Assembly: GCF_057098645.1 (NCBI RefSeq) | Contig: NZ_CM169472.1 | Length of the DNA: 64,000 nucleotides | Reading direction: 5' to 3' (one strand) | Part shown: positions 11,857 to 50,943 of the stretch, piece by piece | How positions within the stretch are numbered: position 1 is the stretch's first letter | How the letters are laid out: every line of letters begins with the position of its first letter | Translations under genes and position numbers: made by a program | The notes under the pieces: generated by a model | Databases searched by the model: none | The model's input: the letters and a program-made list of their open reading frames with translations, nothing else | Told to the model about the DNA's origin: nothing

Positions 11857-12008
11857 TGAGTTATTCCCGCCATCATGAATTGCGTAACCCGCCCAGCCGG
11901 ACACGACAGCGTCGCATCCGGTAGTCACAGGTCGGCGATACTGCCCGCTCCGTATTCTACGAATATTTCCGGGAATTCCTTTGATGCCAGAACAGTTCTG
12001 TAAGATTT

Positions 12009-33163: not shown

Positions 33164-35725
33164 ATGAGTGCAATAGAAAATTTCGACGCCCATACGCCCA
33201 TGATGCAGCAGTATCTCAAGCTGAAAGCCCAGCATCCCGAGATCCTGCTGTTTTACCGGATGGGTGATTTTTATGAACTGTTTTATGACGACGCAAAACG
33301 CGCATCGCAACTGCTGGATATTTCACTGACCAAACGCGGTGCTTCGGCGGGAGAGCCGATCCCGATGGCGGGGATTCCCTACCATGCGGTGGAAAACTAC
33401 CTCGCCAAACTGGTGAATCAGGGCGAGTCCGTTGCCATCTGCGAACAAATTGGCGATCCGGCGACCAGCAAAGGTCCGGTTGAGCGCAAAGTTGTGCGTA
33501 TCGTTACGCCAGGCACCATCAGCGATGAAGCCCTGTTGCAGGAGCGTCAGGACAACCTGCTGGCGGCTATCTGGCAGGACAGCAAAGGTTTCGGCTACGC
33601 GACGCTGGATATCAGTTCCGGGCGTTTTCGCCTTAGCGAACCGGCCGACCGCGAAACGATGGCGGCAGAATTGCAACGCACTAATCCGGCGGAACTGCTG
33701 TATGCAGAAGATTTCGCCGAGATGTCGCTGATTGAAGGCCGTCGCGGCCTGCGCCGTCGCCCGCTGTGGGAGTTTGAAATCGACACCGCGCGCCAGCAGT
33801 TGAATCTACAATTTGGCACCCGCGATCTGGTCGGTTTTGGCGTCGAGAACGCGCCGCGCGGACTTTGTGCTGCCGGTTGTCTGTTGCAGTATGCGAAAGA
33901 TACCCAACGTACGACTCTGCCGCATATTCGTTCCATCACCATGGAACGTGAGCAGGACAGCATCATTATGGATGCCGCGACGCGTCGTAATCTGGAAATC
34001 ACCCAGAACCTGGCGGGTGGTGCGGAAAATACGCTGGCTTCTGTGCTCGACTGCACCGTCACGCCGATGGGCAGCCGTATGCTGAAACGCTGGCTGCATA
34101 TGCCAGTGCGCGATACCCGCGTGTTGCTTGAGCGCCAGCAAACTATTGGCGCATTGCAGGATTTCACCGCCGGGCTACAGCCGGTACTGCGTCAGGTCGG
34201 CGACCTGGAACGTATTCTGGCACGTCTGGCTTTACGAACTGCTCGCCCACGCGATCTGGCCCGTATGCGCCACGCTTTCCAGCAACTGCCGGAGCTGCGT
34301 GCGCAGTTAGAAACTATCGATAGTGCACCGGTACAGGCGCTACGTGAGAAGATGGGCGAGTTTGCCGAGCTGCGCGATCTGCTGGAGCGAGCAATCATCG
34401 ACACACCGCCGGTGCTGGTACGCGACGGTGGTGTTATCGCATCGGGCTATAACGAAGAGCTGGATGAGTGGCGCGCGCTGGCTGACGGCGCGACCGATTA
34501 TCTGGAGCGTCTGGAAGTCCGCGAGCGTGAACGTACCGGCCTGGACACGCTGAAAGTTGGCTTTAATGCGGTGCACGGCTACTACATTCAAATCAGCCGT
34601 GGGCAAAGCCATCTGGCACCCATCAACTACATGCGTCGCCAGACGCTGAAAAACGCCGAGCGCTACATCATTCCAGAGCTAAAAGAGTACGAAGATAAAG
34701 TTCTCACCTCAAAAGGCAAAGCACTGGCACTGGAAAAACAGCTTTATGAAGAGTTGTTCGACCTGCTGTTGCCGCATCTGGAAGCGTTGCAACAGAGCGC
34801 GAGCGCGCTGGCGGAACTCGACGTGCTGGTGAACCTGGCGGAACGGGCCTATACCCTGAACTACACCTGCCCGACCTTTATTGATAAACCGGGCATTCGC
34901 ATTACCGAAGGCCGCCATCCGGTGGTTGAACAGGTGCTGAACGAGCCATTTATCGCCAACCCGCTGAATCTGTCACCGCAGCGCCGGATGTTGATTATTA
35001 CCGGCCCGAACATGGGCGGTAAAAGTACCTATATGCGCCAGACCGCACTGATTGCGCTGATGGCCTACATCGGCAGCTATGTACCGGCACAAAAAGTCGA
35101 GATTGGACCTATCGATCGCATCTTTACCCGCGTAGGCGCGGCAGATGACCTGGCTTCCGGGCGCTCAACCTTTATGGTGGAGATGACTGAAACCGCCAAT
35201 ATTTTACATAACGCCACCGAATACAGTCTGGTGTTAATGGATGAGATCGGGCGTGGAACGTCCACTTACGATGGTCTGTCACTGGCATGGGCGTGCGCGG
35301 AAAATCTGGCGAATAAGATTAAGGCATTGACGCTGTTTGCTACCCACTATTTCGAGCTGACCCAGTTACCGGAGAAAATGGAAGGCGTCGCCAACGTGCA
35401 TCTCGATGCACTGGAGCACGGCGACACCATTGCCTTTATGCATAGCGTGCAGGATGGCGCGGCGAGCAAAAGCTACGGCCTGGCGGTTGCAGCTCTGGCC
35501 GGCGTGCCAAAAGAGGTTATTAAGCGCGCACGGCAAAAACTGCGTGAGCTGGAAAGCATTTCGCCGAACGCCGCCGCTACGCAAGTGGATGGTACGCAAA
35601 TGTCTTTGCTGTCAGTGCCAGAAGAAACCTCACCTGCGGTCGAGGCACTGGAAAACCTCGATCCGGATTCACTCACCCCGCGTCAGGCGCTGGAGTGGAT
35701 TTATCGCTTGAAGAGTCTGGTGTAA
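33164..35725 (+). CDS. mutS: DNA mismatch repair protein MutS
   Basis: 853-aa ORF; mismatch-binding N-terminus, Walker [14 protein letters not shown], Walker [17 protein letters not shown]. Confidence 0.95.
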
Positions 35726-35830: not shown

Positions 35831-36487
35831 ATGCCATCTACACGCTATCAAAAAATCAATGCCCATCACTATCGCCATATATGGGTCGTTGGTGATATTC
35901 ATGGTGAATATCAGTTATTACAATCCCGCTTACATCAACTCTCTTTTTGCCCTGAAACCGACTTACTTATTTCTGTCGGCGATAATATTGATCGTGGGCC
36001 GGAGAGTCTTAACGTCCTGCGCCTGCTAAACCAGCCCTGGTTTATCTCCGTTAAAGGCAACCACGAAGCAATGGCGCTGGATGCGTTCGCGACCGGCGAT
36101 GGCAATATGTGGCTTGCCAGCGGTGGTGACTGGTTTTTCGATTTAAATGATTCAGAGCAAAAAGAAGCTACAGATCTGTTGCTGAAATTCCATCACCTTC
36201 CACATATTATTGAAATCACTAACGACAACATAAAATATGTCATCGCACATGCAGATTATCCGGGGAGTGAATATCTCTTTGGTAAAGGAATAGCGGAGAT
36301 CGAATTACTCTGGCCTGTTGATCGTGTGCAGAAATCGCTTAATGGCGAGTTACAACAAATAAACGGCGCTGATTATTTTATATTTGGACATATGATGTTT
36401 GATAACATTCAGACGTTCGCTAACCAGATTTATATTGATACCGGATCGCCGAACAGCAGGCGGCTGTCATTTTATAAAATAAAGTAA
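35831..36487 (+). CDS. pphB: serine/threonine protein phosphatase 2 (PPP family)
   Basis: 218-aa ORF; metallophosphatase motifs GDIHG, GDNIDRG, GNHE. Confidence 0.9.
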   Translation: MPSTRYQKINAHHYRHIWVVGDIHGEYQLLQSRLHQLSFCPETDLLISVGDNIDRGPESLNVLRLLNQPWFISVKGNHEAMALDAFATGDGNMWLASGGDWFFDLNDSEQKEATDLLLKFHHLPHIIEITNDNIKYVIAHADYPGSEYLFGKGIAEIELLWPVDRVQKSLNGELQQINGADYFIFGHMMFDNIQTFANQIYIDTGSPNSRRLSFYKIK

Positions 36488-36491
36488 TGAG

Positions 36492-36526
36492 GCCGGGTAA
36501 AGCAAAGCCACTACCCGGCACTTTTT
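36492..36526 (+). terminator. rho-independent terminator downstream of pphB
   Basis: GCCGGGTA ... TACCCGGC stem followed by CTTTTTATT. Confidence 0.6.
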
Positions 36527-36527
36527 A

Positions 36528-36764
36528 TTAGCGCTTACCTTCCGCCAGCAGCGGCGGAATGCTCGGCACCATTGGCGCGTCATCAATATCTTTCTGCGTC
36601 ATGCGGAACGCTTCCGGGTAATGTTCGCGGCTGATGCGACGTAGCGGTTCGGTATCGCGCCAGGTATAAAGGCAATGCTGGCACTGATATACCGTCCAGA
36701 CATCTTTCACCGGCGATTTCGCCATCACTTCAATCTGTTCATCGGCACAACGTGGACAAATCAT
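36528..36764 (-). CDS. small subunit of non-oxidative aromatic-acid decarboxylase (BsdD/EcdD-like)
   Basis: 78-aa ORF with CPRC...CQHC cysteine pairs, immediately downstream of the UbiD-family gene. Confidence 0.75.
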   Translation of the reverse strand: MICPRCADEQIEVMAKSPVKDVWTVYQCQHCLYTWRDTEPLRRISREHYPEAFRMTQKDIDDAPMVPSIPPLLAEGKR

Positions 36765-36774
36765 CTTGTTCTCC

Positions 36775-38202
36775 TTATTTACGTACGGCCAGCATAGCGG
36801 TCAGTTTTTCAGCCCAGGCTTTGGTTTCCGGCAAATCCACCACCGGCTGGCTGTAGTGACCACGGTTGTCCGGGGCGACAGGCGTGGTGGCGTCGATAAT
36901 CAGCTTGTCGGTGATCCCCGCCGGGCTTGAGCCAGGGTCGAGTTCCAGCACGGACATATTCGGCAACTGCACCAAATCCCCTGCCGGATTTACTTTCGAG
37001 GAGAGCGCCCACATCACCTGCGGCAGGTTGAACGGGTCAACGTCTTCATCGACCATAATCACCATCTTTACGTAGCCCAGACCGTGCGGCGTGGTCATCG
37101 CACGCAGGCCCACCGCGCGGGCAAAGCCGCCGTAGCGTTTTTTGGTGGAGATAATCGCCAGCAGGCCGTGGGTGTACATGGCGTTTACCGCCTGCACTTC
37201 CGGGAACTCGGCTTTCAGTTGTTGATACAGCGGTACGCAGGTGGCTGGCCCCATCAGGTAGTCGATTTCGGTCCACGGCATGCCGAGGTACAGCGATTCG
37301 AAAATCGGCCTGGTGCGGTAAGAGACTTTATCGATGCGCACCACGGTCATGTTACGCCCGCCGGAGTAGTGTCCGGTAAACTCACCGAACGGCCCTTCGA
37401 TTTCGCGTTTACGGCTTTCGATGACCCCTTCGAGGATCACTTCTGAACCCCACGGCACATCAAAACCGGTCAGCGGGGCGGTGGCGATCGGGTACGGGCT
37501 TTCACGCAGCGCGCCTGCCATTTCATACTCAGACTGATCGTATTTCAGCGGCGTGGCCCCCATCAGCGTGATGATCGGATCGTTACCGAGCGTGATCGCA
37601 ATCGGCAGATCTTCACCGCGCTCTTCTGCTTTATGCAGATGCAGGGCGATATCGTGCATCGGTACCGGTTGCAGGCCAAGCTTACGCTTGCCCTTCACTT
37701 CCATGCGGTAGATGCCGACGTTCTGCTTGCCGAAGTTATCTGGGTCGAGCGGATCGCGGGAAACCACGCAGGCTTTGTCGAGATAGAAACCGCCATCGCC
37801 ATCATTTAAACGAAACAGCGGCAGGATATCGAACAGATTAATCTCGTCACCATCGACGGTGTTCTGCGCCCAGGCAGGATTGGCGCGGCGCTCCGGGACA
37901 ATCGGGAAGTTATCCCAGCGGCGGATAAACTCATCAATCTGTTTTTTAACCGGCGTGTTTGGCGGCAGGCCGAGGGAAATCGCGTGGTTCTGCCAGGAAC
38001 CGATGGTATTCATCGCCACGCGGGCATCGGTAAAGCCGCGAATATTATCAAACCACAGCGCGGGCGCGCCGTCGCCGATACGCCCGGTGGCGTTAGCTGC
38101 TGCTGCCAGATCCGGCTCAGCGTTCATTTCTTCGCTGATTTTCAGTAACTGGCCGTGGTCATCAAGCGCCTGTAAAAAGCTGCGTAAATCATCAAATGCC
38201 AT
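36775..38202 (-). CDS. UbiD-family (prFMN-dependent) decarboxylase, EcdC/BsdC-like
   Basis: 475-aa ORF with UbiD-family architecture; 1-nt overlap with the upstream UbiX-like gene. Confidence 0.88.
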   Translation of the reverse strand: MAFDDLRSFLQALDDHGQLLKISEEMNAEPDLAAAANATGRIGDGAPALWFDNIRGFTDARVAMNTIGSWQNHAISLGLPPNTPVKKQIDEFIRRWDNFPIVPERRANPAWAQNTVDGDEINLFDILPLFRLNDGDGGFYLDKACVVSRDPLDPDNFGKQNVGIYRMEVKGKRKLGLQPVPMHDIALHLHKAEERGEDLPIAITLGNDPIITLMGATPLKYDQSEYEMAGALRESPYPIATAPLTGFDVPWGSEVILEGVIESRKREIEGPFGEFTGHYSGGRNMTVVRIDKVSYRTRPIFESLYLGMPWTEIDYLMGPATCVPLYQQLKAEFPEVQAVNAMYTHGLLAIISTKKRYGGFARAVGLRAMTTPHGLGYVKMVIMVDEDVDPFNLPQVMWALSSKVNPAGDLVQLPNMSVLELDPGSSPAGITDKLIIDATTPVAPDNRGHYSQPVVDLPETKAWAEKLTAMLAVRK

Positions 38203-38795
38203 TATTCATTCTCCTGAGAAAAATTCCGGACCTGCGGCAATCCTTGCCAGCGCCTGGCGTGGGGATGTTCGAAGCCAAATTGATCCAGCACGCGGGCTAC
38301 CACATGGTGGACAATGTCATCTACCGTTTCGGGATGGTTATAAAAGGCAGGCATCGGCGGCACCATCGCCACGCCCATGCGTGAAAGTGCGAGCATATTT
38401 TCGAGATGGATGGTGCTAAGCGGCATTTCACGCGGCACCAGCACCAGTTTGCGGCCTTCTTTGAGCACGACGTCCGCCGCGCGCCCTACCAGGCCATCGG
38501 CGTAACCAGCGCGGATACCGGCGAGCGTTTTCATACTGCACGGAATAACGATCATGCCGTCGGTACGAAAGGAACCTGAGGAGATGGTCGCCGCCTGATC
38601 CGCCGGGTTATGGCTGAAGTCAGCGAGGGCAGCAACATCGCGGGCGCTGTAAGGCGTTTCCAGTTCAATGGTGGTTTTCGCCCACTTCGACATCACCAGA
38701 TGAGTCTCGACATTCGGCATCTCCCGCAGCGCTTGCAGTAATGCCACACCAAGAGGCGCACCGGTAGCCCCTGTCATCCCGACGATCAGTTTCAT
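38202..38795 (-). CDS. UbiX/Pad1-family flavin prenyltransferase, EcdB/BsdB-like
   Basis: 197-aa ORF; N-terminal MKLIVGMTGATGA flavoprotein motif. Confidence 0.88.
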   Translation of the reverse strand: MKLIVGMTGATGAPLGVALLQALREMPNVETHLVMSKWAKTTIELETPYSARDVAALADFSHNPADQAATISSGSFRTDGMIVIPCSMKTLAGIRAGYADGLVGRAADVVLKEGRKLVLVPREMPLSTIHLENMLALSRMGVAMVPPMPAFYNHPETVDDIVHHVVARVLDQFGFEHPHARRWQGLPQVRNFSQENE

Positions 38796-38812
38796 TGCTT
38801 ACTCTCTTAATT

Positions 38813-38826
38813 GTTCGTATACGAAC
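38813..38826. promoter_or_regulatory. perfect 14-bp palindrome GTTCGTATACGAAC, candidate operator
   Basis: Lies 18 nt upstream of the UbiX-like start codon in the divergent region shared with the MarR-type gene. Confidence 0.4.
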
Positions 38827-38908
38827 ATTATTATTAAAATACGCCTCTGTTCTCATTGCGGCAAGCACTGAAAAGTAACAACATCCCCTTCGTCACTGAA
38901 AAACCGCT

Positions 38909-39349
38909 ATGATAGCGGCAGATAGTTTGCCCGGAGTTTACATGGCGTTACGAAATAAAGCGTTCCATCAGTTACGACAGCTTTTTCAGCAGCACACGGC
39001 TCGCTGGCAGCACGAGTTACCTGACCTGACCAAACCACAGTATGCGGTGATGCGCGCCATTGCTGATAAGCCTGGTATCGAACAGGTGGCACTGATAGAA
39101 GCAGCAGTCAGCACCAAAGCAACGTTGGCAGAAATGTTGGCAAGAATGGAGAATCGTGGCTTAGTCAGACGTGAACATGATGCCGCTGACAAGCGGCGTC
39201 GCTTTGTCTGGCTGACTGCCGAAGGAGAAAAGATACTTGCTGCGGCGATACCGATTGGTGACAGCGTGGATGAGGAATTTTTGGGGCGTTTGAGTGCAGA
39301 AGAGCAGGAGCTGTTTGTGCAGCTGGTGCGCAAGATGATGAACACATAG
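38909..39349 (+). CDS. MarR/SlyA-family transcriptional regulator
   Basis: 146-aa ORF with winged-helix region; alternative start at Met-12 (38942) cannot be excluded. Confidence 0.85.
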   Translation: MIAADSLPGVYMALRNKAFHQLRQLFQQHTARWQHELPDLTKPQYAVMRAIADKPGIEQVALIEAAVSTKATLAEMLARMENRGLVRREHDAADKRRRFVWLTAEGEKILAAAIPIGDSVDEEFLGRLSAEEQELFVQLVRKMMNT

Positions 39350-39423
39350 GATGCAAATTGCCGGGTAGGACGCTGACGTGTCTTATCCAGGCGACAAAAA
39401 CACAAGCTTCCCAAACAAAAGAA

Positions 39424-39452
39424 AAAGGCCAGCCTCGCTTGAGACTGGCCTT
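39424..39452 (-). terminator. rho-independent terminator downstream of rpoS
   Basis: Minus strand: AGGCCAGTCTCAAGCGAGGCTGGCCT hairpin followed by TTTTCTTTTG. Confidence 0.6.
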
Positions 39453-39468
39453 TCTGACAGATGCTTAC

Positions 39469-40461
39469 TTATTCGCGGAACAGCGCTTCGATATTCAGCC
39501 CCTGCGTTTGCAGGATTTCGCGCAAACGGCGCAGGCCTTCAACCTGAATCTGGCGAACACGTTCACGGGTGAGGCCAATTTCACGACCTACATCTTCCAG
39601 TGTTGCCGCTTCGTACCCCAGCAAACCGAATCGACGTGCCAGCACTTCACGCTGTTTGGCGTTCAGCTCGAACAGCCATTTGACGATGCTCTGCTTCATA
39701 TCGTCATCTTGCGTGGTATCTTCCGGACCGTTCTCTTTTTCATCGGCCAGGATGTCCAGCAACGCTTTTTCGGAATCACCACCCAGCGGGGTGTCTACCG
39801 AGGTAATGCGCTCGTTAAGACGAAGCATACGGCTGACGTCATCAACTGGCTTATCCAGTTGCTCTGCGATCTCTTCCGCACTTGGTTCATGGTCCAGCTT
39901 ATGGGACAACTCACGTGCGGTTCGCAGGTAAACGTTCAGCTCCTTTACGATGTGAATCGGCAAACGAATAGTACGGGTTTGGTTCATAATCGCCCGTTCA
40001 ATCGTCTGGCGAATCCACCAGGTTGCGTATGTTGAGAAGCGGAAACCACGTTCCGGGTCAAACTTCTCTACCGCGCGGATCAGCCCCAGGTTGCCCTCTT
40101 CGATAAGGTCCAGCAACGCCAGACCACGATTGCCATAACGGCGGGCAATTTTTACCACCAGACGCAAGTTACTCTCGATCATCCGGCGGCGAGAGGCGAC
40201 ATCTCCACGCAGTGCGCGACGCGCAAAATAAACTTCTTCTTCGGCCGTTAACAGTGGTGAATAACCAATCTCACCAAGGTAAAGCTGAGTCGCGTCCAAC
40301 ACACGCTGTGTGGCTCCCTGCGATAACAGTTCCTCTTCGGCCAAATCGTTATCACTGGGTTCCTCTTCTACTAAGGCCTTTTCGTCAAAAACCTCAACTC
40401 CGTTCTCATCAAATTCCGCATCTTCATTTAAATCATGAACTTTCAGCGTATTCTGACTCAT
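39469..40461 (-). CDS. rpoS: RNA polymerase sigma factor RpoS (sigma-38)
   Basis: 330 aa from [21 protein letters not shown]; sigma-70 family regions 2-4. Track ORF includes 12 extra N-terminal codons. Confidence 0.95.
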
Positions 40462-50548: not shown

Positions 50549-50943
50549 GGGTGTTCTACCGCAGGGGCGGGGAATTCTAAGTGATATCCATCATCGCATC
50601 CAGTGCGCCCGGTTTATCCCCGCTGGCGCGGGGAACACTACCCAAAGCCATACGTTTTTGAGGGTTAAAACGGTTTATCCCCGCTGGCGCGGGGAACTCG
50701 AGACCTGCCATGAGGTGGATTTATCAGTCGGCGGTTTATCCCCGCTGACGCGGGGAACTCGATTTTTTCCGCTTCTGACAAATGGTTTTTATCGGTTTAT
50801 CCCCGCTGGCGCGGGGAACTCCCCGAACCCGGCAACATGCTCGCCGACCTGCGCGGTTTATCCCCGCTGGCGCGGGGAACTCTTGATGAAGCGGCGCGTG
50901 TTATAGCTGATGGCCGGTTTATCCCCGCTGGCGCGGGGAACTC
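50549..50943 (-). CRISPR. type I-E CRISPR array: 6 full 29-bp repeats, 6 x 32-bp spacers, plus a degenerate leader-distal repeat
   Basis: Plus-strand repeat CGGTTTATCCCCGCTGGCGCGGGGAACTC at 50610, 50671, 50732, 50793, 50854, 50915 (61-bp period); minus strand reads GAGTTCCCCGCGCCAGCGGGGATAAACCG. Spacers 50578-50609, 50639-50670, 50700-50731, 50761-50792, 50822-50853, 50883-50914. Degenerate repeat 50549-50577 (19/29). The + ORF 50658-50906 is a repeat artefact. Confidence 0.95.

Follow-up and report, generated by a model that had tools for sequence, protein, structure and literature searches.

The window, a stretch of 64,000 nucleotides from contig NZ_CM169472.1 (assembly GCF_057098645.1), carries between pphB and rpoS three intact and co-oriented genes, vdcB, vdcC and vdcD, and the divergent gene hosA (ORF list, 36528-39349; Table 1). 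The stop codon of vdcB overlaps the start of vdcC with 38202 as the shared base, and vdcC is separated from vdcD by 10 nt (ORF list). This packing is operon-like, and the same B-C-D gene order was found in 80 related loci. The closest named NCBIfam equivalogs were VdcB, VdcC and VdcD of non-oxidative hydroxyarylic acid decarboxylases, and, judged by their profile matches (E = 2.9e-93, 4.6e-237 and 1.8e-35, respectively, all above the curated cut-offs), the three reading frames are not chance ORFs. The equivalogs of bagremycin/ferroverdin biosynthesis were ruled out (BagM/FevK, 340.2 bits against 420; BagL/FevM, 88.8 bits against 230), and a search with Rfam found no RNA families in or near the module. 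The genes, their families and intactness, the catalytic and zinc-binding residues, the palindrome with the extent to which it is conserved, and the occurrence of the arrangement in other genomes were all covered by the present analysis.

Table 1. Features of the mutS-rpoS interval in the window.
Feature	Coordinates	Strand	Basis and remarks
mutS	33164-35725	+	ORF list; left of pphB
pphB (serine/threonine phosphatase 2)	35831-36487	+	NCBIfam NF007425, 466.6 bits against cut-off 332; annotated pphB in RM12761; left flank of the module
pphB/vdcD hairpin	36489-36523	.	Within 40-bp spacer; probable bidirectional terminator for two convergent genes
vdcD (ecdD), 78-aa zinc-ribbon activator subunit	36528-36764	-	NF041205
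vdcC (ecdC, yclC), 475 aa, UbiD-family prFMN-dependent decarboxylase subunit	36775-38202	-	NF041204
vdcB (ecdB, pad1), 197 aa, UbiX-family flavin prenyltransferase making prFMN	38202-38795	-	NF041206, TIGR00421
Perfect 16-bp palindrome TGTTCGTATACGAACA, probable HosA operator	38812-38827	.	16 nt upstream of vdcB ATG
Candidate vdcB promoter	38836-38864	-	Predicted; -35 TTGCCG (38864-38859), 17-nt spacer, -10 TATTTT (38841-38836)
Candidate hosA -10 TATGAT	38908-38913	+	Predicted; within palindrome CCGCTATGATAGCGG at 38904-38918
hosA, 4-hydroxybenzoate-sensing repressor (MarR family) of the operon	38942-39349	+	Identity to 8AGA, PGAP start
rpoS intrinsic terminator	39422-39455	-	15-pair stem followed by T run; -27.3 kcal/mol, z -3.8
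rpoS	gene end at 39469	-	ORF list

Decarboxylase subunits and their known counterparts

The VdcB protein scored 310.6 bits with NF041206 (cut-off 290) and 245 bits with TIGR00421 (cut-off 108.9), and it matched E. coli O157:H7 Pad1 (PDB 1SBZ) over its full length (residues 1-197, E = 1.9e-128). Similarly, VdcC scored 786.9 bits with NF041204 (cut-off 650) and matched PDB 7AE4_A over residues 3-471 (E = 7e-160). The conserved residues of VdcC include R166 (in NVGIYR), E269 and E274 (in EGPFGEF), H345 and Y377, of which the last two correspond to H349 and Y381 of ShVdcC; from published knowledge of the UbiD family, we take R166, E269 and E274 to be the catalytic triad. VdcD scored 120.6 bits with NF041205 (cut-off 30) and matched chain a of PDB 7AE4 (E = 3e-11). 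It has a Pro-rich tail and two CXXC knuckles formed by Cys3, Cys6, Cys28 and Cys31, and these cysteine positions are the same as those of the zinc ligands of ShVdcD (PMC8379154). The earlier note had described a three-gene operon encoding a UbiX-like, a UbiD-like and a 78-aa Cys-rich protein, and the ORF list, NCBIfam scores and PDB matches agree with this description. Homology searches, which it had named as able to overturn the reading by assigning the genes to unrelated families, upheld the VdcB, VdcC, VdcD and MarR family assignments, and its outer limits of the module were right apart from the start of the regulator.

The known system nearest in content is that of O157:H7, EcdBCD or Pad1-YclC-YclD with HosA, which matches the window in gene content, order and orientation and likewise lies between pphB and rpoS. 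The proteins of the two are 99.4% (VdcC), 98.7% (VdcD), 98.5% (VdcB) and 99.3% (HosA) identical and the hosA-vdcB spacers are identical, so that the differences are allelic only, although O145:H28 RM12761 is a far closer match to the window. The O145:H28 locus, with 99.9% identity, has the same four products in its RefSeq annotation. The VdcCD enzymes of Sedimentibacter hydroxybenzoicus and Bacillus subtilis (ShdCD, BsdBCD; PDB 7AE4) likewise combine a UbiD-type C subunit with a four-Cys zinc-ribbon D subunit, and their catalytic and zinc-binding residues and B-C-D operon order recur in the window, whereas about half of the residues differ and control by HosA belongs to Enterobacterales. The VdcD of the window is 10 residues longer than ShVdcD and has E instead of R at position 12, so that of the three salt bridges reported between the subunits of ShVdcCD (PMC8379154) one is lost. 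The ubiquinone enzymes UbiX and UbiD share their two superfamilies and the prFMN chemistry with VdcB and VdcC; however, housekeeping UbiD works without a D subunit and, according to the literature, acts on a polyprenylated substrate, in contrast to the free hydroxybenzoate used by VdcC. VdcC as the UbiD orthologue was ruled out by its score of 173.6 bits against a UbiD equivalog cut-off of 788. We are highly confident that the module is a HosA-regulated non-oxidative hydroxyarylic acid decarboxylase (hosA with vdcBCD, ecdBCD or pad1-yclC-yclD), lying directly after pphB in an O157-type mutS-rpoS interval. The module is already known, its genes, regulator, ligand, two crystal structures and the polymorphism of the interval between strains having all been published, and as a discovery it is therefore of little weight.

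HosA and the candidate regulatory elements of the spacers

The regulator is identical in 133 of 135 residues to EPEC HosA (PDB 8AGA, "Transcriptional regulator HosA"; E = 2.7e-84). The earlier note had proposed a divergent gene of the MarR/SlyA family starting at 38909. The MarR family and the divergent orientation stood, while orthology with SlyA did not (NF002926, 30 bits against a cut-off of 120), and "slyA" in older annotations of hosA is a family-level label only. Its start codon was also set aside, as the ATG at 38909, which would give a 146-aa ORF (38909-39349), is not conserved in other genera and falls within a conserved TATNAT element kept in 17 of 17 aligned spacers. The start is most likely the ATG at 38942, which gives 135 aa and is equivalent to that used by PGAP and by PDB 8AGA; it is preceded at a distance of 6 nt by GGAG (38933-38936), which recurs in most of the 17 sequences aligned, with GGGG and AGAG as the two variants.

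The palindrome upstream of vdcB was found by direct reading together with a terminator scan and then tested by a pattern search, the repeat search having missed its abutting arms. Its core, GTTCG-N4-CGAAC, has a single copy in the 64-kb window, where 0.05 would be expected (pattern search). The exact core was present inside the hosA-vdc spacer in 67 of the 77 related loci that hold hosA, and in 76 of them when up to three mismatches were allowed. Furthermore, the palindrome is the most conserved block in the alignment of 17 spacers, and its position is conserved across genera in which HosA is only 50-97% identical. As summarised in a preprint (bioRxiv 10.1101/2024.04.24.590444), Roy & Ranjan 2016 reported that HosA represses the operon and its own gene, that 4-hydroxybenzoate disrupts the binding of HosA to DNA and that the palindromic HosA site lies downstream of the transcription start. 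A specific in vivo response to 4-hydroxybenzoate (38-fold) was also reported with a reporter circuit (PMC13355054). The palindrome is thus the probable HosA operator, with a core conserved across Enterobacterales.

A generic promoter scan offered ATGAGA-18-AATAAT as the operon promoter, which was set aside in favour of TTGCCG-17-TATTTT because the latter has a -35 TTG and a -10 TA that are invariant columns in 17 spacers from 12 genera. With this candidate promoter the palindrome would lie just downstream of the predicted start site, matching the reports on HosA. The candidate -10 of hosA is about 80 nt away from the palindrome, so the reported autorepression is unexplained by simple steric blocking there.

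The hairpin between pphB and vdcD folds with -16.8 kcal/mol on the + strand (z -2.3) and -18.4 kcal/mol on the - strand (z -3.1), from which its function as a bidirectional terminator is probable. The spacer holding it belongs only to intervals where vdcD lies next to pphB, and it is unlike the sequence that immediately follows the pphB stop in K-12 and in pattern IV. On the other side, the matches of strains without the cluster begin no earlier than position 2929 or 2936 of the query (39416 or 39423 in the window), and the rpoS terminator forms the right boundary of the variable interval, with similarity to K-12 and B2 resuming thereabouts.

Interval types and the origin of the module

The mutS-rpoS interval has been described as polymorphic (PMC4209514). 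The window represents pattern I, in which vdcD directly follows pphB after its own hairpin spacer of 34 bp, hosA directly precedes rpoS and the ygbI-N genes are lacking. The intervals of K-12, B2 and EPEC type (patterns II, III and IV of PMC4209514) have the same mutS-pphB left flank and the same rpoS terminator and rpoS on the right. K-12 carries ygbI-ygbN without the cluster, B2 strains such as ST131 carry ygbI-N with an MBL-fold hydrolase and a flavodoxin, and pattern IV carries ygbI-N followed by vdcDCB-hosA. The order in the K-12 derivative HST04 is pphB-ygbI-ltnD-otnK-ygbL-ygbM-ygbN-rpoS. The K-12 ygbN/rpoS junction carries GTGCACAG, which is absent from pattern IV.

The cluster was present in 2379 of 5426 complete E. 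coli genomes and absent from 56%. A contiguous match to pphB and vdcD was found in 804 of the 5426, including O157:H7 and O145:H28, and many E. coli (2379 minus 804 genomes) hold both ygbI-N and the cluster. The best match to the window was O145:H28 RM12761 (99.9-100%), and O157:H7 Z1723 has the same gene order with 97.9% DNA identity. The synonymous divergence between E. coli strains was 0.10-0.29 for mutS and vdcC against 0.01-0.05 for rpoS. The statements of the earlier note that K-12 has a different gene set here, that the arrangement is of O157 type and that the interval is polymorphic were thereby confirmed by HST04, by Z1723 with RM12761, and by PMC4209514 with the raised mutS/vdcC divergence, respectively. 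Judged by the deletion junctions, none of patterns I, II and IV derives from another by a single clean deletion. Of some practical use, the window can be typed as having a mutS-rpoS allele of pattern I (O157/O145-like).

The older literature, in the passage of PMC4209514 that cites LeClerc 1999, speaks of a 2.9-kb "insertion" relative to K-12, and a 2024 preprint argues for Shigella dysenteriae as the source of transfer. The view that pathogenic lineages gained the module between mutS and rpoS recently by horizontal transfer, for example as an islet from Shigella, would agree with the absence of the cluster from over half of the complete E. coli genomes, and the synonymous divergence of mutS-vdc, several times the rpoS value, fits recombinational import of alleles. 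However, of 70 VdcC loci of other species whose flanks were long enough, 51 have the cluster adjoining rpoS. The order nlpD-rpoS-hosA-vdcBCD was found in 46 of these loci, from Citrobacter, Klebsiella, Enterobacter, Kluyvera, Leclercia, Kosakonia, Atlantibacter, Franconibacter, Mangrovibacter and other genera, with mutS next, as in the window, where the flank reaches that far; in the other 5 (Salmonella, Phytobacter) the cluster is inverted and still adjoins rpoS. In addition, the GC content (55-60%) is near that of mutS (55-61%), no tRNA, integrase or direct-repeat boundaries were found at the module, and the coexistence of ygbI-N and the cluster in many E. coli agrees with an ancestral interval that held more genes and lost them differentially. 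On this synteny, recent insertion or acquisition from Shigella was judged quite unlikely. Because rpoS-hosA-vdcBCD-mutS is common to most genera of Enterobacteriaceae, the presence of the cluster at this site is probably the ancestral state. Exchange of alleles by homologous recombination is likely. The cross-genus synteny speaks against the recurring description of a horizontally acquired islet.

Proposed function of the module

Enzyme activity, ligand and repression are taken here from the literature on near-identical proteins. VdcB would prenylate reduced FMN to prFMN, and VdcC would use this cofactor for the reversible removal of CO2, turning 4-hydroxybenzoate into phenol and vanillate into guaiacol. 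The zinc ribbon of VdcD would bind VdcC and keep the catalytic Glu-Arg-Glu loops in place. HosA dimers sitting on the palindrome in the vdcB 5' leader would block transcription until the binding of 4-hydroxybenzoate releases them from the DNA. Activity depends on VdcD, an allosteric activator (PMC8379154). Decarboxylation of 4-hydroxybenzoate or vanillate has been reported for the O157:H7 enzyme, which is 98.5-99.4% identical to that of the window, and for homologues from Klebsiella and Salmonella (PMC6644310; PMC6424909). In a published table, O157:H7 EcdCD and B. subtilis BsdBCD share their two substrate codes (PMC6644310). We take these codes to stand for 4-hydroxybenzoate and vanillate. 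The link to phenolic acids that had been suggested from the genes has been established by published experiments, in which 4-hydroxybenzoate elicits a response of HosA and both compounds are substrates of EcdCD. As VdcCD enzymes are oxygen-sensitive in vitro, their activity in aerobic cultures is uncertain.

The real job of the module could be physiological and not the detoxification of xenobiotics: control of the endogenous 4-hydroxybenzoate pool, a prFMN/UbiD back-up for ubiquinone, or anaerobic phenol production in the gut. In 47 of 48 genomes, VdcC had diverged less than MutS from the window protein (median amino acid identity 96.4% and 93.3%, respectively), a comparison biased by the loci being the best 80 VdcC matches. 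The dN/dS of vdcC between E. coli alleles was 0.02-0.03, which points to strong purifying selection and is in line with such a role. Furthermore, 12 related loci lack vdcB and must depend on the housekeeping UbiX, indicating cross-talk with the ubiquinone cofactor system, and gut-microbiome studies treat Had/KpdBCD as a phenol-forming step (PMC6424909, PMC13230720). Against this, the score of VdcC is far from that of a UbiD orthologue, it is free 4-hydroxybenzoate and not the prenylated intermediate that serves as inducer and known substrate, and over half of E. coli can dispense with the cluster. Strain 2013C-4830 carries the cluster with a vdcC pseudogene, and such loss of vdcC in some E. 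coli, together with the genomes missing the whole cluster, indicates that the function is dispensable. We consider a physiological role unlikely. A wider picture is offered tentatively, as a doubtful but conceivable one: hosA-vdcBCD as the ancestral occupant between rpoS and mutS in Enterobacteriaceae and not a pathogen-associated insertion, with the decarboxylase under tighter constraint than MutS, a conserved role in stationary-phase or anaerobic gut life, such as control of the 4-hydroxybenzoate/phenol pool, and secondary loss in K-12 and B2.

Detoxification of phenolic acids is the benefit to the cell that we infer for the module. The strain is predicted to convert 4-hydroxybenzoate and vanillate to phenol and guaiacol, the former substrate being both a plant phenolic and a product of paraben hydrolysis.

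Gene layout, protein families and published function

The function, regulation and polymorphism of the hosA-vdcBCD module are already published; operator coordinates and their conservation, a corrected hosA start, genome counts and cross-genus synteny are added here and leave the established picture unchanged. The earlier note, which had read a UbiX-like, a UbiD-like and a Cys-rich small-subunit gene with a divergent MarR-type regulator between pphB and rpoS as a phenolic-acid decarboxylase system, was right in both observation and interpretation. Its coordinates coincide with ORF boundaries, and vdcD, vdcC and vdcB are closely packed after pphB, with a GC content of 55-60%, near that of mutS.

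Coordinates of features in the window
Feature	Position	Strand	Basis or remark
mutS	33164-35725	+	ORF list
pphB	35831-36487	+	ORF list
vdcD, 78 aa	36528-36764	-	ORF list
vdcC, 475 aa	36775-38202	-	ORF list
vdcB, 197 aa	38202-38795	-	ORF list
Palindrome	38812-38827		candidate HosA operator
Candidate promoter	38864-38836	-	TTGCCG-17-TATTTT
hosA	38942-39349	+	start re-placed; divergent from the three minus-strand genes
REP-like sequence	39360-39395		between hosA and rpoS terminator
rpoS	stop at 39469	-	ORF list
CRISPR array	50601-50943		Type I-E, beside iap
cas3	57033-59698	-	ORFs 57341-59698 and 57033-57644
sok	59778-59934	-	RF01794, 98.3 bits

The proteins were searched against NCBIfam profiles with curated cut-offs and compared with solved structures. 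The three minus-strand products were assigned to VdcD (120.6 bits, cut-off 30), VdcC (786.9 bits, cut-off 650) and VdcB, a UbiX-family flavin prenyltransferase (310.6 bits, cut-off 290), which are the families proposed and not unrelated ones. As a housekeeping UbiD, VdcC scored 173.6 bits, far under the cut-off of 788. The structures agree: VdcB matches 1SBZ, the O157:H7 'Pad1' structure, over its full length (E 1.9e-128), and the nearest structure to VdcC is the phenolic acid decarboxylase 7AE4 (E 7e-160), whose partner chain matches VdcD (E 3e-11). VdcC retains R166, E269 and E274 (EGPFGEF) and the H and Y residues proposed for substrate positioning in the VdcCD structural paper, and the VdcD cysteines Cys3, Cys6, Cys28 and Cys31 are equivalent to the positions at which the zinc ribbon of Sedimentibacter VdcD binds Zn (PMC8379154). 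The regulator matched MarR-family models alone in NCBIfam, all under their cut-offs (SlyA, 30 bits vs 120), and is identical at 133/135 residues to 8AGA, 'Transcriptional regulator HosA', which bears out its MarR-type reading.

For hosA, the proposed gene end was retained and the proposed start at 38909 was replaced. MALRNK is the N-terminus in both the PGAP annotation and the crystallised HosA and corresponds to 38942. When the hosA-vdcB spacers of 17 sequences from 12 genera were aligned, a GGAG 6 nt upstream of this ATG was kept in most (variants GGGG and AGAG), while the ATG at 38909 becomes ATC in several genera and falls within a conserved TATNAT block resembling a hosA -10 element. The downstream start was therefore adopted.

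We take the two substrate codes given for O157:H7 EcdCD and B. subtilis BsdBCD to be 4-hydroxybenzoate and vanillate. The codes are identical for both enzymes in a review table (PMC6644310), and the Klebsiella homologue converts 4-hydroxybenzoate to phenol (Lupa 2005, as cited by PMC6424909). VdcD, which binds the VdcC hexamer tightly and stabilises the catalytic loops, is needed for activity, and the holoenzyme is oxygen-sensitive (Marshall et al., PMC8379154). Roy & Ranjan (Biochemistry 2016; summarised in the preprint bioRxiv 10.1101/2024.04.24.590444 and cited in PMC13355054) showed that HosA is a repressor both of its own gene and of the non-oxidative hydroxyarylic acid decarboxylase operon, that 4-hydroxybenzoate breaks HosA-DNA binding and induces the operon, and that the HosA site, a palindrome, is downstream of the point where transcription starts. 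A HosA circuit gave an up to 38-fold response specific to 4-hydroxybenzoate (Ligify 2.0, PMC13355054). The decarboxylase reading accords with published activity and induction (PMC6644310, PMC13355054, PMC6424909).

A candidate HosA operator in the hosA-vdcB spacer

A 16-bp perfect palindrome, TGTTCGTATACGAACA, lies in this spacer 16 nt upstream of the vdcB ATG and is a candidate HosA operator. The whole 64-kb window has a single copy of its core, GTTCG-N4-CGAAC, against 0.05 in shuffles. Among the best 80 of 352 VdcC relatives, the exact core was present in the hosA-vdc spacer of 67 of the 77 loci holding hosA, and the full palindrome with up to three mismatches in 76; the exact core is nearly missing from the remaining ~1.5 Mb of locus sequence searched. 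The palindrome is by far the most conserved spacer block in the 17-sequence alignment and is kept in more distant genera, where HosA identity drops to 50-60%. Invariant TTG and TA columns fit the candidate vdcB promoter, from which the palindrome would span roughly positions +4 to +20 of the mRNA, in agreement with the published downstream location of the HosA site.

Loci of Pseudocitrobacter, Enterobacter, Klebsiella and Kluyvera (L009, L019, L020 and L023) have a further operator-like site, GTTCG-N4-CGA, closer to hosA, together with ~25 extra bases. Both are missing from all Escherichia spacers examined (compared with window 38870-38905), so that, judged from these alignments, HosA autoregulation in E. 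coli may differ from that in other genera.

Interval types in E. coli and cross-genus synteny

With window 36488-39468 as query (at least 80% coverage), the module was found in 2379 of 5426 complete E. coli genomes, chromosomal in every case. A query spanning pphB and vdcD was contiguous in 804, hence ~15% of genomes have the window's arrangement and ~29% carry the cluster away from pphB. This arrangement, which the earlier note had assigned to O157-type and other lineages, is present in O145:H28 RM12761 (99.9-100% identity) and O157:H7 Z1723 (97.9%); the window is an intact, ordinary O157/O145-type allele. The different gene set expected for K-12 was seen in its derivative HST04 (pphB-ygbI...ygbN-rpoS), and one ST131 strain has ygbI-N with an MBL-fold hydrolase and a flavodoxin. 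In strain 2013C-4830 (L004), vdcDCB-hosA comes after ygbI-N, and vdcC (L004 18993-20420) is interrupted by an internal stop. Published interval patterns comprise O157/EHEC-1, K-12, B2 and EPEC types, the last with kpdD-kpdC-kpdB-slyA after o454 (= ygbN) (PMC4209514).

In 2013C-4830, ltnD and otnK are also pseudogenes, and both alternative modules are decaying in one genome. In E. coli PS_131_S11, which shares the window's arrangement, mutS and pphB are separated by an additional tetratricopeptide-repeat gene (L005 4113-4976) and pphB is only 85% identical to that of the window, a further interval variant.

Junction sequences showed modules exchanged at gene ends beside hairpins. The window's pphB/vdcD spacer consists of a 34-bp hairpin, which is missing from K-12 and pattern IV (EPEC-type) strains. 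The spacer between hosA and the rpoS terminator, also at L004 21578-21613, contains a REP-like sequence; an unrelated B2-type module likewise ends in one at the same place (L003 ~11890-11930). Such repeats could be recombination substrates at the right-hand junction.

Compared with four other Escherichia alleles, vdcC (dS 0.14-0.29, dN/dS 0.016-0.034) is under strong constraint. The dS of mutS (0.10-0.25) and vdcC far exceeds that of rpoS within E. coli (just 0.01-0.05), thus the left part of the interval holds deeply diverged alleles, the pattern expected of the reported recombination hot spot. VdcC identity to the window protein exceeded that of MutS in 47 of 48 genomes, a comparison biased by picking loci on VdcC similarity.

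Across species, the best 80 of 352 VdcC relatives (one genome per species) were scanned, with neighbours located by tblastn. The window's order, nlpD-rpoS-hosA-vdcB-vdcC-vdcD, was found in 46 loci (Citrobacter, Pseudocitrobacter, Klebsiella, Enterobacter, Kluyvera, Leclercia, Lelliottia, Kosakonia, Atlantibacter, Franconibacter, Mangrovibacter, Cedecea and Pluralibacter), with mutS next wherever the flank was long enough. Five loci (Salmonella arizonae, diarizonae and Phytobacter) have the cluster inverted, with vdcD beside rpoS. For 19 loci, each with 9 kb or more of flank on either side, no rpoS was seen in the vicinity; most are outside Enterobacteriaceae (Pantoea, Erwinia, Rahnella, Rouxiella, Chimaeribacter, Leminorella and a Vibrio), and at least two, Siccibacter and Superficieibacter, are within it. 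Read most simply, these loci would place the module between rpoS and mutS as early as the ancestor of Enterobacteriaceae, and E. coli lineages without it would then have lost it. Kotewicz and colleagues reportedly drew much the same conclusion from this interval in Salmonella. Acquisition of the cluster from Shigella, as a preprint proposed (bioRxiv 10.1101/2024.04.24.590444), is contradicted by this reading, which also softens the older term 'insertion' (PMC4209514).

Within L006-L085, the 80 loci from other species, vdcD is directly followed by mutS in most genera, and pphB adjoins the cluster only in Escherichia, Pseudocitrobacter, a Citrobacter-labelled MAG contig and Klebsiella spallanzanii (61% identity). 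Twelve of the 80 (L041, L053, L055, L064, L065, L070, L074, L075, L077, L081, L084 and L085) have no vdcB between hosA and vdcC (hosA-vdcC-vdcD); these organisms presumably rely on housekeeping UbiX for prFMN.

Other features of the window

A sok antitoxin RNA lies between cas3 and cysH, and no other Rfam match was found in the 64-kb window. The cas3 gene measures 2666 nt against 2667 nt in RM12761, with one G missing at ~57694 (GATGG to GATG) and one more substitution at 57776; it is broken into two ORFs, either by a real frameshift inactivating Cas3 or by a sequencing error. The CRISPR array has six repeats at 61-nt spacing, the annotated array of RM12761 is 515 bp, and cas3 coordinates are shifted between the two by ~183 bases, or three repeat-spacer units. 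Given this offset, the window and RM12761 are probably closely related but distinct.
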